64,000 nt of DNA from Fidelibacterota bacterium (lineage in GTDB: Bacteria > Fidelibacterota > UBA8477 > JABMPR01). The stretch covers positions 55,735-119,734 of the forward strand of contig JADHUM010000002.1 of assembly GCA_016784545.1 (NCBI GenBank). Reading direction: 5' to 3'. Numbering within the stretch: the first letter of the stretch is position 1; every line of letters begins with the position of its first letter. Made by a program: the position numbers. Below, in pieces: positions 57,001-64,000 of the stretch.

Positions 57001-60000
57001 AACACCAGCGATGGCTTCCAGACTTTTGGGTTTTTCACAAGCAGTCATGGATATGAGTGATACCATAATAAAGGTGAGGGCAAACCGCATTAGAACCGCC
57101 TCTCAATTGTAAAAGTTGCAATGCGTTCTTCTTCAATATTCCGCTCGAGCTGGGTATAGTAGTATTGAAAAACGTTCTCCACCCGTATCAAAAAATGCCA
57201 ATCTTTGACTGATCTTCCAACTCCTGCATTCCACACATGAATAGGAACCCGTGCATCGGCGCCAGTGAGTATGTTTTCCTGAAAAAGTTCAACGCTTTCC
57301 ATGCGACTAAGATATCTATATTCAATTGAGGCATCCATCCCCCAATAGTGTAATCCCATGGTGCTGATCCAGTGATATCGATGGCGATAGGACAAGGTAT
57401 CCAGAATCTTCCCTTTTGAATCTGTTTCCATGGGATCCAGCACCGTAAATGCCGACTTGTAATCAATCAGATTGTTGAATGCACTTAATCCCAGACCTAC
57501 TTCCAGACCCATTATGCGGGCATCGGCAATATTCTGGAAATGAATAACCGCATCTGAGTCGGGAATGGGCTCAATAAAATTTTCAAATCTGTTATGAAAA
57601 ATAGCCGCATCCAATTTAAGCAGATCCAGAACCCCTATCTGCCCCGCCAGAATGGTAAGCCCAAATTCACGGTTTATGCTGGTCTCTGAAATCAAATCTG
57701 GATTTGGTTCAACGGTAAAAATACTTCGGCGGGCAGTGGTAAACATCTCAGCCACAGTCGGGACCCTGAATCCTTTACCCGTAGAAATGCGTAAACCCAA
57801 CCATGGAGATGGTTTCCAGTTTAGTGCAAGTTGAGGGGTAAAAACATCATCCTGATTCCGACCATCTACTTGATAGGCTTCCCAGCGACTTCCTGTAGAA
57901 AGGGTGAATTGATGTAACTTTTTTTCCAGGAGGAGAAAAGTGGCAAAGGAAGAGCTGGTGTGATCACCAAAAATTTGTGCATTCACCTTATTCTGCTGCA
58001 TAGTCAGTCCAAAAATACTGCTAAGGCTAGTGGTCCAACTTTTACTTGCCTGCACTTCTTCGTAGAAGCGATTTTCGTTTGAGTAATCAGGATCTACACC
58101 AAAACTGGTCCATTCATTCCAGTAGGCGCTGGTCTTGGTTTTTATGGCCAAATCTGGGGAATACACATAATTGTAATGGCCGTTGAGGACCACTTTTCTA
58201 CCCTGAGTACCATCTCTCGAGGAACCTTCAGGCGCTTCAAAGGGATTCGCAGAACTCTTCCAAATAGATGTCAATCCTTCTTTATCATCAAGGACATTGA
58301 TAAAAACTGCAGCGGAGTGAGCATTACCGAAATTCAATTTGAGTTTAGCAGAAATGTTGATAGCCTCTTCCCAGTTCAATTCCATAAATCCATCATCGTC
58401 ACGTTTCTGAGCTCGAATCCAGAACGCATGATTTCCAATACTCCGTGAATGGGATATCTCTGTATTGTACAACAAGCCACGTTTTTCACGCCAGCGCCAC
58501 TCGTCAACCCGGGGATGACTATAAACGCCTATTTTTGTTGATAGTCGGGTTTCAGGCTTAAGCGGAGCATTGCGAGTGATAATATTTACCACGCCACCCA
58601 TGGCACTGGACCCATACAGGGCGGATCCACCGGATTTGACAATTTCGACCCGATCAACTTCTGAGGTGGGGATGGTAGCCCAGGTAACATTTCCTGCCGC
58701 GCTTCCCAGCATGGGGATGCCATCCAGCAAGAGCAATGAGCGAGTGCCGGCTCCCATTGTATATCCCGATGTTCCCCTGATATTCAATTGCCCCTTAATG
58801 GTCGACACCCCTGATTCAAAGGAGAGGATATCTATCATACTGACCACTGCCTTTGCTTGAATCTCTCTTGGTCCAATAGCTGAAACTGAAAAAGGAGATT
58901 CAAGAATATCCTGTTCTTTACGGCTGGAAGTGACCACCACCTGGGGTGATGCCAGGACATTGGATTTGAGTTGCACTGCCAGTTGAACTGGGACATCAAG
59001 AATTACAGCGATATTTTTTTTATTCAGGGGCGCATAGCCCATCATTGAAAAAGAGAGGGTGTACTCTCCCGGGCTGAGTCCTTCCAGTTTGTAATAGCCC
59101 TCCAGATCCGTCGTAGTGCCAAAGGAGCTGCCCTGAATTTGAATATTTACACCCGGGAGTCCTTCACCCGATCGACCGTCAGTGACTCTCCCATTGACCG
59201 AGCCCGTGGATTGCCCAAGTACTGAGATAGATAGCAGTGTGGACCACAGGAGAAGCCACAAGTGTCGCCTCAAGGGGTTTATTATTTGATAAATATGTGA
59301 TTTCATGAAGTTGGCGAATATAGAATCGTTGCCAAAGTCAGACAACGTGAAAAGCAGAAATTATCGAACGGAGTGTCTCTTGTTCAAATACGCGAGCAGA
59401 GCCACATCCAGGGATTGATCAGTGGTTAAGGGGACGTAATCCACATGCTGTTCACGGCACCGCGCACCAAGCTTGGTTCTGAACTCATCCACAGCATTCT
59501 GATAGTCTTTCTGAATATGCCAGGGTTCAGTTGCCATGACCTCACCTGATTCCATATCCTTGAATTTAGCCTGGGCATCGAAGGCAAAATCCACTTCGCG
59601 TGGGTCCAGAATGTGGAACACCAGGACTTCATGTTTATCATGTCGGAAATGTTTGAGACCATTCAGAATATTGTCCAGGTCATCCAACATATCTGAGATT
59701 ATAATTACCAGACCACGACGGTTTATTCGATCCGCAAGATGGTGAAGGCTATGACCTATGGCGGTTTCCTCGCCTGGTGAAACATGCTCGAGATGGCTGA
59801 GAATATTATTCAACATGGAGGGGCGTGATGAAGGTCGGATATGGGTGCGAATTTCAGTATCGAACAGGGTTAGACCTACTGCATCCTGTTGTCTGAGTAA
59901 AAGATAGGTAAGGGCTGCAGATAGATAGCTGCCATACTGCAATTTGCTGATATCTCCAGATGCATAGGCCATGGATTTGGACATATCCAGCATGAGGTGG

Positions 60001-63000: not shown

Positions 63001-64000
63001 ATCCATTCATGATTTCATCTTCAGCAGAAAAAACGATATCGGTTTTGCCGAAGTCTTTAACCTGGAGTTGATCCATGATGGGCTGATAAGTCTGTTCCGC
63101 AATCAGAGCACCTTTTTCAGCAATGCTTTCCAGTCCCTGATGATAGTGAAGATTAAAATGTTCCGTTTCCAGGGTGTGCCATTCTAATTCGGGATGGGTA
63201 CGTTGATTCCACATCCACATATTTTGGGCTGATACGCTTTGGGTATACAAAAAGATGACTAGGATTGCTGCCCATTGAATAATCACGCAAGGTGATAAAT
63301 AACGACGAATCGACCTGGATAAGGAACGAAGAGAATCAGGGGATCTTTCGATACCTATATCGTTGGGATTACTATTCTCATTATAACAACTCTGGCAGTT
63401 ACGAAACATGACGGATATGGGATTTGATTAGTACCAATTTCTGTCCTTCGAGGGCCTCAGGATGACGAAAGTAGTAATCAACTGTGAAGGGATTCATATT
63501 CATAAGCCTCTGTCCGTGTCATCCCGAGCGGAGTCGAGGGATAAGGTATTAATATGCTCAAAACAGCTTCTTGATAATCTCATCCACTGAAACACCATCA
63601 GCTTCAGCATTAAAATTGGTAAGAACGCGGTGTCGCAGGACAGGGAGAGCCACTGCTTTGACATCCTCAATAGATGGCGTGGGATTGCCCATCATAGCAG
63701 CTCTGGTTTTCGCACCCAGTATGAGATATTGTGAGGCTCTGGGTCCAGCACCCCAACCAACCCACTTCTGAATAAAATCAGGTGCACTCTCTGAATCAGG
63801 TCGTGTTTTTGCCACCAGATCCACTGCATAGTCAATCACGTTGTCAGCAACAGGGACTCGACGAATGAGATCCTGGTATTCCATGATGGCTTTTCTATCC
63901 AAAATTTTCTTCAATTGAACAGATGCTCCCGAAGTGGTTTGACCCACAATCTGGCGTTCTTCATCACGACTTGGATATTCAACCTGCAAATTGAACATAA

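Follow-up and report, generated by a model that had tools for sequence, protein, structure and literature searches.

The window, by which we mean the whole 64,000-nucleotide stretch of Fidelibacterota contig JADHUM010000002.1 that was analysed, ends in a series of genes that all lie on the minus strand, and in which a 3015-nt gene is found between moxR and the gene for a DUF58 protein. In the order in which they are transcribed, these genes are:

63558 to >64000, minus strand: 3' part of moxR, encoding the C-terminal 146 aa (Pfam AAA_lid_2, 8e-15); the gene runs past the window edge
60395 to 63409, minus strand: 1004-aa ORF (3015 nt), an exported protein with gluzincin peptidase, TolB-like propeller and Omp85 barrel
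59361 to 60257, minus strand: DUF58 gene, 298 aa (PF01882, 1.4e-45; VWA_2, 8e-9), with a vWA-like fold
57090 to 59345, minus strand: TonB-dependent receptor with Pfam Plug, TonB_dep_Rec_b-barrel and CarboxypepD_reg domains
56632 to 57090, minus strand: putative lipoprotein of 152 aa with a lipobox-like MTAC, no family assigned
54875 to 56563, minus strand: outer-membrane beta-barrel protein of 562 aa, with PF13505 (6e-7) as its only Pfam match
54173 to 54817, minus strand: protein of 214 aa, no family assigned

The gene order that an earlier note on this DNA had pointed out is real, with the 3015-nt gene and two spacers (63410-63557 and 60258-60394) separating moxR from DUF58, and the same order is kept in relatives. 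On contigs that encode exactly the same 1004-aa protein (L001-L004) the full moxR product is 323 aa long, with bpMoxR, AAA_3, AAA_5 and AAA_lid_2 matches, while in the 298-aa DUF58 protein neither a signal peptide nor a TM segment was seen. A moxR that is followed immediately by DUF58, as is typical for Bat-type operons, is not what the window holds, and is found instead in other Marinimicrobia clades. The same note had seen no canonical vWA/BatA partner, and a Pfam scan of the 35 larger of about 50 window ORFs (28 outside the trio of moxR, 1004-aa gene and DUF58) confirms this: no vWA/BatA-type gene and no VWA domain other than that of DUF58 itself were found among them, nor were the downstream operon genes for BatA/BatB vWA membrane proteins or BatC/BatE TPR proteins. 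Conversely, the description of the 562-aa barrel as a FadL-like porin had to be dropped, as profile and PDB comparison gave it no support: there was no Toluene_X and no PDB match, and those to PorV/BamG were weak.

The product of the 3015-nt gene can be divided into three domains, preceded by a predicted signal peptide, and the following features were placed on it:

63227 to 63286, minus strand: predicted signal peptide V42-A61, (M)IIQWAAILVIFLYTQSVSA, with presumed cleavage before the following Q; the hydrophobic stretch aligns with the N-termini of homologs
62462 to 63223, minus strand: gluzincin (clan MA) peptidase-like domain, residues 63-316
62888 to 62902, minus strand: HEFQH motif, H170-H174, predicted to bind zinc and be catalytic; HExxH in 28/28 homologs
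62798 to 62824, minus strand: WWIEGMAEY motif, W196-Y204, with E199 or E203 as presumed third zinc ligand
61640 to 62461, minus strand: TolB/PD40-type beta-propeller, residues 317-590
60398 to 61498, minus strand: 16-stranded Omp85-type beta-barrel, residues 638-1004, ending in ...VNPF
60734 to 60742, minus strand: L6 'LRG' lid-lock motif, L890-G892; xRG in 26/28 homologs
60596 to 60610, minus strand: beta13 'FYDFG' (FxDxG) lid-lock motif, F934-G938; D in 28/28 and G in 27/28 homologs

This division agrees with what had been proposed from the sequence, and the AF2 model (pLDDT 82.8, pTM 0.82) indeed shows an N-terminal domain at residues 65-315, a propeller at 317-590 and a barrel of 16 strands at 638-1004. 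Pfam and NCBIfam profiles match the propeller (PD40, 2.6e-16; TolB, 1.6e-29), and conserved motifs and the model support the peptidase and the barrel. Both HEFQH (H170/E171/H174) and WWIEGMAEY (E199/E203) are kept in all 28 homologs, at identities as low as 27%, with the latter following the pattern WxEGxA(E/Q)Y throughout. Together with the thermolysin-like fold, an HExxH with a downstream Glu places the domain among the gluzincins of clan MA(E). The WxEGxA(E/Q)Y segment resembles the WLNEGFA motif of M1 peptidases. However, none of the 28 members has a Pfam Peptidase_M1 match, and the GxMEN exopeptidase motif is absent, the conserved segment some 35 residues upstream of HExxH being EDEIMNGFA; as such, the domain is M1-like in fold but not assignable to family M1. 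Likewise, the protein is no full-length TolB of the Tol-Pal system with its N-terminal alpha/beta domain, since the TolB equivalog TIGR02800 scores 103 bits where its cut-off is 343, with matches only at propeller positions 172-320. At the other end, a C-terminal ...NPF is shared by 27 of the 28 homologs. The Omp85 lid-lock pairs a loop-6 motif on the extracellular side, (L/M/V)RG(W/Y/F), with an FxDxG in strand 13 (PMC11358297), and the corresponding segments here are SLRGQ (889-893) and FYDFG (934-938), their placement on L6 and beta13 being read from the order of strands in the AF2 model. A 16-stranded C-terminal barrel and both lid-lock motifs, the marks of the Omp85 superfamily, are thereby present.

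The true start of this protein is probably the GTG at 63286, giving a product of about 963 aa, since this is where most homologs begin and the stretch before it shows no conservation. We also considered Tat export through the SIRRYLS sequence within the annotated N-terminal extension, which would echo the case of MoxR1 and RipA, and rejected it because the RR is not conserved even among close relatives (IRSY, ISGY, IKKY, IRPY) and most homologs start at a later Met.

The earlier note named no characterised equivalent of this locus, but the three-domain protein itself belongs to a group already described: Heinz & Lithgow defined a 'WD40-like Omp85' cluster in 2014 (Front Microbiol 5:370, PMC4104836), and their Table S3 lists members from Caldithrix, Rhodothermus, Chloroherpeton, Cloacimonas and myxobacteria that have a BamA/TamA barrel with TolB and aminopeptidase matches, the entries for 'best aminopeptidase hit' being 1z5h, 4kxd, 4fgm, 3qnf and 4ar1. 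The 1004-aa protein carries a TolB-like PD40 propeller N-terminal to an Omp85 barrel as well as the additional aminopeptidase-like domain, and is an ordinary member of this subfamily, assigned by shared architecture rather than by comparison with the listed accessions (H1XQ58, D0MEQ5 and others). The three-domain architecture was already catalogued in 2014 and is not new, and a placement in a known family that lacks protease or propeller, which would have spoken against the original description, is not what we find. No POTRA domain was matched by Pfam in any of the 28 members, which is to be expected as the subfamily replaces its POTRA domains. When homologs are clustered at 50% identity, most of the 150 top-ranking representatives are full-length at about 930-1010 aa, and homologs from Calditrichota and the FCB group occur among the matches. 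The 2014 study discusses neither an HExxH site nor gene neighbourhoods (PMC4104836), and our literature search found no experimental work on Omp85-PD40-peptidase proteins.

In order to see how far the linkage extends, a synteny census was taken over 80 genomes, out of 267 genome hits. The order moxR, Omp85-peptidase gene, DUF58 occurs at 29 loci, all of which belong to one Marinimicrobia clade that is monophyletic in the tree of the Omp85-peptidase. Outside this clade, another 29 Marinimicrobia/Fidelibacterota loci have enough flank on both sides to be informative, and these lack both moxR and DUF58, as do the surroundings of three distant homologs. At these unlinked Marinimicrobia/Fidelibacterota loci, the neighbours of the Omp85-peptidase gene are housekeeping genes in several contexts (dnaE, dtd, M24 peptidase, methyltransferases, HAD, HhH-GPD), and in the metagenome-assembled genome JBHIEY01 it lies on a different contig from moxR-DUF58. 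Because the linkage is restricted to a single monophyletic clade, it counts as one evolutionary event. The expectation that homologs would co-localise with moxR/DUF58 is thus borne out within this clade only, and the outcome is mostly negative: neither co-localisation across the client family nor a repeated origin of the linkage was found among the 29 informative loci and the three distant homologs.

Within the clade, all sampled members have kept the trio whole, even where Omp85-peptidase identity is as low as 41%, despite changes in the flanks. In L034, rplU-rpmA are missing upstream and the cluster of the TonB-dependent receptor is missing downstream; the receptor is also absent after DUF58 in L022 and L024, and in L005 a further 8 kb is inserted between DUF58 and the receptor. 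The latter is therefore a neighbour only, linked to the trio in part of the clade. Identities of MoxR and DUF58 drop smoothly alongside that of the Omp85-peptidase, which speaks for vertical descent and favours the view, judged from these comparisons, that moxR and DUF58 of the clade are orthologous to those elsewhere. Paralogy, in the form of a second, canonical moxR-DUF58 pair within the clade, was raised because assembly GCA_900089805.1 has both kinds, and is disfavoured since the two contigs differ in GC (38.8% versus 45.1%), which marks this as a mixed assembly. The Omp85-peptidase evolves much faster than its neighbours (85% versus 96-99% identity), and the identity comparison gave no hint that they change in step.

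In the rest of the phylum, moxR and DUF58 form a plain two-gene unit. At L086-L088 they are directly adjacent, 8-40 bp apart, and a convergent TPR gene follows; at L089 they are neighbours separated by 510 bp in which no gene was called. In a fifth locus, L085, a PDDEXK_3 gene lies in between, and no VWA beyond that of DUF58 was found in any of the five (L085-L089), where only the convergent TPR gene follows. Lack of BatA/vWA partners is the norm for moxR-DUF58 in this phylum and not special to the locus in the window. Furthermore, four loci within the clade (L010, L011, L014, L035) have a HAD_2 hydrolase gene between the Omp85-peptidase gene and DUF58; the moxR-DUF58 spacer accepts unrelated cargo.

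The two spacers of the window contain the following repeats:

63437 to 63470, minus strand: first copy of a 34-nt direct repeat with core TTCGTCATCCTGAGGCCCTCGAAGGA, in the spacer between moxR and the 3015-nt gene
60334 to 60395, minus strand: tandem heptanucleotide AAGTTAG in 8.9 copies, beginning at the stop codon of the 3015-nt gene
60292 to 60325, minus strand: second copy of the 34-nt repeat, in the spacer before DUF58, 88% identical over 34 nt and 25/26 in the core

The 34-nt repeat occurs exactly twice in the 64 kb, with 0 copies expected by chance, and a pair of repeats on either side of a gene could be taken for the footprint of its insertion. We reject this, as the near-identity of the cores (25/26) means that the copies are young, close relatives have the repeat in varying places (L005 upstream of moxR, L009 in a single copy), and it also turns up, in many cases together with an inverted partner, on contigs that are unrelated and have 39-66% GC. 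It is a generic REP/MITE-like element. RNA folding of both spacers was no better than that of shuffled sequences, Rfam found nothing, and scans for promoters and terminators gave matches at chance level, the sigma-70 consensus being probably unsuited to this phylum. Only 12-18 bp separate the stop codon of the Omp85-peptidase gene from the start of DUF58 in those clade members that branch off early, and neither spacer of the window holds a terminator-like site. The three genes are therefore probably co-expressed, and in at least some genomes probably co-transcribed.

Taken together, we favour, with a probability of roughly 0.7, a single ancestral insertion of a WD40-like Omp85 peptidase gene into a moxR-DUF58 operon that was inherited vertically, rather than a dedicated client of MoxR. 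One rearrangement or insertion, in the common ancestor of a single Marinimicrobia (SAR406/Fidelibacterota) lineage, would have put the gene into a two-gene operon, where it would since have been 'trapped' by selection that keeps both operon ends together. Its product is predicted to be Sec-exported to the outer membrane, with the C-terminal 16-stranded Omp85 barrel as the anchor for a TolB-like propeller and for a gluzincin zinc peptidase of M1/M30/M9-like type. In Omp85 proteins, what lies N-terminal usually faces the periplasm, so that the two domains here presumably do so as well. The protein could then act as an outer-membrane-tethered protease, with a propeller that filters substrate access as in tricorn and S9 peptidases, and its possible role would be the quality control of envelope proteins or the processing of peptides. 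Neither MoxR nor DUF58 shows an export signal, and both would thus be cytoplasmic, which means that any direct chaperone-client contact would have to precede export of the Omp85-peptidase, and we infer that no functional link exists between them. The proposal of a new MoxR-client system is not supported, given a linkage seen in one clade only, a family already catalogued, an absence of BatA that is the norm, and the lack of export signals in MoxR and DUF58.

Could the trio nevertheless form a lineage-specific module, in which the MoxR ATPase and a DUF58/vWA-like adaptor were recruited to the Omp85-peptidase, either to hold or remodel the precursor before export or to control its expression under envelope stress, with the interleaved order reflecting selection for co-expression? 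The persistence of the trio in all 29 clade members while the flanks vary, the short spacers of basal members, and the terminator-free spacers of the window, would fit such a module. There is also precedent, in that MoxR1 acts on the exported hydrolase RipA before secretion, an interaction reportedly required for the export of this hydrolase, and MoxR systems have been linked to envelope and stress phenotypes, Bat/MoxR operons to those of stress. Yet the comparative support amounts to one origin (n=1), orthologs of both partners work unlinked across the rest of the phylum, and unrelated HAD and PDDEXK_3 genes occupy the same spacer. A Sec-exported beta-barrel must stay unfolded until it has reached the outer membrane, a difficult client for a MoxR and DUF58 without export signals, and neither a conserved RR that would indicate Tat nor coupled divergence of the three proteins speaks for contact. 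We consider a module of this kind unlikely.

Less likely still is a surface protease for nutrition, whose Omp85 barrel would bring its own peptidase and propeller out onto the cell surface, in the manner of PlpD and its patatin domain, with peptides entering via the adjacent TonB-dependent receptor and the position between moxR and DUF58 being incidental. Marinimicrobia are considered degraders of proteins and peptides, and both in the window and in many members of the clade DUF58 is followed, on its own strand, by genes for a TonB-dependent receptor, for a putative lipoprotein and for an outer-membrane barrel. Heinz & Lithgow (PMC4104836) moreover consider it possible that Omp85 proteins whose N-domains are enzymes translocate these to the surface. 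However, this receptor cluster is unlinked in L022, L024 and L034 and in every genome where the Omp85-peptidase is unlinked from moxR, the conserved lid-lock motifs are typical of closed BamA/TamA-type barrels, and a folded propeller of 270 residues is an unlikely passenger. Finally, that the window comes from a metagenome-assembled genome and that the start codon is uncertain might suggest a chimeric contig or a mis-called fusion of separate genes, a reading effectively refuted by 9 contigs with the same arrangement and an identical protein, the 1.06-Mb contig FLOH01000011.1 that is 98.3% identical to the window, 29 related genomes with the same gene order, abundant single-stretch homologs of 930-1010 aa, and an AF2 model that is confident across domain boundaries.

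We attach little weight to moxR-peptidase-DUF58 as a new MoxR system, and the case is a warning not to infer function from one conserved neighbourhood. The probable co-expression of the three genes leaves room for a lineage-specific functional link. There is a slim chance that in this one Marinimicrobia lineage MoxR-DUF58 captured the Omp85-peptidase, with which it would be co-transcribed and on whose precursor it would act, keeping the pre-protein of about 960 residues export-competent or gating its production under envelope stress. If true, an AAA+ chaperone would be connected with how an outer-membrane protease is made, and MoxR/DUF58, a pair that has long been uncharacterised, would gain a concrete client. 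Of more general value is the peptidase-propeller-Omp85 family itself, a large one whose conservation spans Fidelibacterota/Marinimicrobia as well as other phyla, with its predicted zinc site and lid-lock motifs intact, and a plausible outer-membrane-tethered quality-control or processing protease. Moreover, the minimal moxR-DUF58 unit of Marinimicrobia, devoid of BatA/BatB, could ease the study of this pair alone.

How do these genes compare with known systems? Bat operons, in which MoxR (of the MRP subfamily), DUF58 and vWA genes follow each other, are known from Bacteroides, Riemerella, Francisella, Leptospira and Borrelia (PMC11834572). The window shares with them a leading moxR and a DUF58 downstream on the same strand, both proteins being typical of their families. 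It differs in the unrelated 3-kb outer-membrane protein gene between the two and in the lack of BatA/BatB vWA membrane proteins and a BatC-type TPR gene, while the rest of Marinimicrobia has moxR-DUF58 only, then a convergent TPR gene. An anti-phage MoxR-vWA conflict system was also considered and rejected, as PADLOC matched neither DUF58 nor the 1004-aa protein and gave no more than a partial hit for MoxR (2.6e-4). Among propeller-gated peptidases, tricorn with its M1 factor F3 and the S9 prolyl oligopeptidase/acylaminoacyl peptidases come to mind, but here the gluzincin is fused in cis, N-terminal to the propeller, the M1 GxMEN motif is absent, and the whole is anchored in the outer membrane. 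BepA (YfgC), an M48 zinc protease of the periplasm, helps BAM and also polices it; since it is a soluble TPR protein of another zincin family, with no fusion to barrel or propeller, the likeness is functional speculation. PlpD, the patatin-like Omp85 of type Vd secretion, has the same combination of Omp85 barrel and N-terminal enzyme domain, but it carries a POTRA domain and secretes a lipase passenger, whereas the 1004-aa protein has no POTRA and is unlikely to export a passenger. With the WD40-like Omp85 subfamily of the FCB group and other diderm phyla, in contrast, the whole architecture is shared, from the C-terminal BamA/TamA-like barrel and the TolB-like PD40 propeller to the N-terminal M1/M9 aminopeptidase-like domain and the missing POTRA. 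No architectural difference sets the 1004-aa protein apart, and it is a member from Marinimicrobia, a phylum that was barely sampled in 2014.

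All genes called as ORFs between 51 and 64 kb of the window lie on the minus strand:

63558..>64000, minus strand: moxR, last 146 codons, with AAA_lid_2
60395..63409, minus strand: ORF of 1004 codons, the big gene
59361..60257, minus strand: DUF58 gene (PF01882, 1.4e-45, plus VWA_2)
57090..59345, minus strand: TonB-dependent receptor
after the TonB-dependent receptor and before the 562-aa gene, minus strand: 152-aa protein with a lipobox-like N-terminus
54875-56563, minus strand: 562-aa outer-membrane barrel protein (PF13505 only)
between the 562-aa and 950-aa genes, minus strand: 214-aa protein
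51279-54131, minus strand: 950-aa fusion of FAD_binding_4/FAD-oxidase_C, 4Fe-4S and CCG domains (GlcD-GlcF-like)

The complete MoxR, as found on four contigs that encode an identical 1004-aa protein (L001-L004), has 323 aa with bpMoxR, AAA_3, AAA_5 and AAA_lid_2 matches, and rplU-rpmA lies upstream of the full moxR there; these contigs mark the source as a MAG of the Marinimicrobia (SAR406/Fidelibacterota). Because a 1.06-Mb contig, 98.3% identical to the window, keeps the same gene order, an assembly artefact is ruled out and the order moxR–big gene–DUF58 is real. The 562-aa protein, which carries an Ala/Gly/Thr-rich insert in its middle, matched only the generic OMP_b-brl profile, and PorV/BamG weakly, with no solved relative found; its earlier description as a FadL-like porin was not borne out. 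The 950-aa fusion is syntenic 3' of the TonB-receptor cluster in many members of the clade described below.

The three domains that the earlier note read in the 1004-aa protein (zinc peptidase, PD40/TolB propeller and outer-membrane barrel) are correct, as follows from profile matches, motifs conserved in an alignment of 28 homologs (identity down to 27%), an AlphaFold2 model and the lid-lock motifs. Only the propeller is clear to Pfam/NCBIfam (PD40, 2.6e-16; TolB, 1.6e-29, with a score far under the TolB equivalog cut-off), the HExxH region giving a weak M9 match. The model is confident (pLDDT 82.8, pTM 0.82) and has an alpha/beta-plus-helical domain (residues ~65-315), a propeller (317-590) and a barrel of ~16 strands (638-1004). 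H170-E-x-x-H174 is invariant, and WxEGxA(E/Q)Y follows 22-30 residues C-terminal of it in 28/28 homologs. The M1 motif GxMEN was not found in the peptidase domain, where the conserved segment is EDEIMNGFA; therefore the domain is no member of family M1 and resembles it in fold only. PF01103 (Omp85) is matched by 8/28 homologs, at best with 1.4e-9, and the protein ends in ...PF in 27/28. An xRG motif (26/28) and an FxDxG motif (its D kept in 28/28) correspond to the Omp85 lid-lock pair, which sits on loop 6 and strand 13 (PMC11358297).

Judging from the homologs, most of which begin (MIIQW...) at a Met equivalent to V42, translation probably begins at the GTG at 63286. The 41-residue N-terminal extension (63286-63409), RR pair included, is without conservation among them, and these first 41 codons are probably untranslated, or at least unconserved. 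The SIRRYLS within it resembles a Tat motif, and was rejected as one for the same lack of conservation. In L009, a related locus, the reading frame upstream of the start passes through the intergenic repeat described below.

We fetched 80 genomic loci in which relatives are encoded, taking as much as 10 kb on either side where the contig reached that far, and searched their six-frame ORFs with MoxR, DUF58 and the neighbouring proteins of the window. The order moxR–gene–DUF58 was present in every locus with a protein at least 48% identical to the window's and in one at 41% (L034), and in none of the remaining loci. In a neighbour-joining protein tree these 29 linked Marinimicrobia loci group together as one clade, in which L034 branches off first, and their sister group (L027/L036) is unlinked. 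Another 29 unlinked loci were fully informative, with adequate flank on both sides. In unlinked genomes the gene has various housekeeping neighbours: dnaE, dtd, genes for a B12-binding domain protein and a TPR protein, or M24 peptidase, methyltransferase, UbiE, HAD or HhH-GPD genes. Three more distant homologs, at 27-33% identity, lie on contigs of between 0.5 and 5.8 Mb and likewise lack the moxR/DUF58 linkage. Within the comparison, MoxR and DUF58 identities fall smoothly as that of the big protein falls, as expected if the orthologs are vertically co-inherited. The locus is a lineage-specific operon variant.

In other Marinimicrobia clades, with DUF58 orthologs ~60% identical, moxR adjoins DUF58; the two lie 8-40 bp apart in L086-L088, without BatA/BatB in the surroundings. 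In the MAG JBHIEY01 they are 510 bp apart, with no called gene in the gap, and the Omp85-peptidase gene is on a separate contig. Therefore, a minimal two-gene moxR–DUF58 unit is the phylum norm, and while the vWA/BatA partner is indeed missing, as the earlier note had it, this is nothing special to the window's locus. The moxR–DUF58 spacer accepts unrelated cargo besides the big gene: one Marinimicrobia lineage has a PDDEXK_3 gene (130 aa, nuclease fold) inside the interval (L085, 8556-8948), and four syntenic-clade members have a HAD_2 hydrolase gene (~215 aa) between the Omp85-peptidase gene and DUF58:

L010, 12863-13522: HAD_2 gene
L011, 7290-7955: HAD_2 gene
L014, 13029-13673: HAD_2 gene
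L035, 12883-13536: HAD_2 gene

A convergent TPR gene of ~358 aa always comes next after moxR–DUF58 in L085-L089, with a divergent rlmN on the other side in L085-L088; the conserved TPR gene, on the opposite strand, may correspond to the TPR genes of Bat operons. Assembly GCA_900089805.1 holds two contigs with differing moxR–DUF58 arrangements (L085, L097), whose composition clearly differs, at 38.8% and 45.1% GC; the assembly is therefore a mixed, metagenomic one and unusable as a case for paralogy in one genome.

Each spacer flanking the big gene carries one copy of a 34-nt direct repeat (88% identical), with exactly two copies in the 64-kb window:

63437-63470, minus strand: copy in the spacer towards moxR
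60292-60325, minus strand: copy in the spacer towards DUF58

Its core is TTCGTCATCCTGAGGCYCTCGAAGGA, its 26-nt core TTCGTCATCCTGAGGC[C/T]CTCGAAGGA, and the upstream spacer holds an imperfect inverted partner, CTCGGGATGAC... In relatives the repeat lies elsewhere (upstream of moxR in L005, as a single copy in L009), and a 25-mer of it recurs in unrelated metagenome contigs with a GC content of 39-66%, where it often forms inverted pairs or incomplete tandem copies. The repeat is young and variably placed, looks like a generic, widespread REP/MITE-like element, and was rejected as an insertion scar. A 7-nt tandem array, AAGTTAG on the coding strand (60334-60395; 8.9 copies, 94% matches), begins at the big-gene stop codon and recurs in the near-identical contig L097. 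Rfam gave no match in the region around the big gene, and PADLOC no relevant defence-system match at the locus.

Two further features of the window were observed:

14878-22055, minus strand: apparent aromatic amino-acid catabolism cluster, with a Biopterin_H-type hydroxylase (589 aa), a two-domain glyoxalase/dioxygenase (HPPD-like), an HgmA_N-like protein, a class I/II aminotransferase, an FAA hydrolase and a flavin reductase-like protein
25498-30540, minus strand: ORF of 1680 aa, its recognised domains being only an N-terminal FlgD_ig and a lamin-tail; the protein is probably secreted or at the cell surface

So how did the gene come to lie between moxR and DUF58? The simplest account is a single ancestral insertion or rearrangement, which would have put the Omp85-peptidase gene into the moxR–DUF58 operon, where it was then kept; on this account selection maintains co-expression of moxR and DUF58, so that a gene between them is hard to remove. 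The new MoxR-client system proposed earlier is not supported, the linkage being that of one clade, with the 29 informative unlinked loci against it. Three observations would fit a lineage-specific functional link of MoxR/DUF58 with the Omp85-peptidase: the trio stays unbroken while both flanks vary (L034, L022, L024, L005), basal clade members have spacers of 12-18 bp, and a terminator-like site is absent from the window's spacers in a scan that was overall at chance level. Such a link is unlikely, and the comparative evidence for it amounts to one event. That MoxR/DUF58 act on the precursor of the big protein is more improbable still. Neither MoxR nor DUF58 has an export signal, whereas the big protein has a predicted signal peptide and a barrel. 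A beta-barrel protein must pass the inner membrane unfolded on its way through Sec/BAM, and a predicted exported barrel protein beside two proteins lacking export signals argues against a direct chaperone-client relation.

By analogy with other Omp85 proteins, the N-terminal domains of the 1004-aa protein should be periplasmic, and because the gluzincin site adjoins a TolB/tricorn-type propeller, the architecture suggests a protease tethered under the outer membrane, with substrate access filtered by the propeller; it could plausibly serve in quality control of envelope proteins or in peptide processing, with BepA as a loose functional analogue. PlpD-like surface export of the enzyme, supplying the adjacent TonB receptor, is a minority alternative, as the TonB-receptor cluster is linked to the gene only in part of the clade. 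The family is sizeable (506 matches in a word-indexed search), and most of the 150 top-ranking cluster representatives (clustered at 50% identity) are full-length, at ~930-1010 aa. Our literature searches found no experimental study of the Omp85–propeller–peptidase architecture. The Omp85/TpsB superfamily has been split into subfamilies that include a 'WD40-like' Omp85, in which a TolB-like propeller replaces the POTRA domains (Heinz & Lithgow 2014, PMC4104836). For the members of this subfamily, which include H1XQ58 of Caldithrix, D0MEQ5/D0MCT8 of Rhodothermus, B3QRX6 of Chloroherpeton, B0VIY2 of Cloacimonas and proteins of several myxobacteria, Table S3 of that study gives matches to a BamA/TamA barrel and to TolB, together with the 'best aminopeptidase hit' (1z5h, 4kxd, 4fgm, 3qnf, 4ar1) (PMC4104836). 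This three-domain architecture is identical in kind to that of the 1004-aa protein, which by it is a member of an already known, uncharacterised subfamily.
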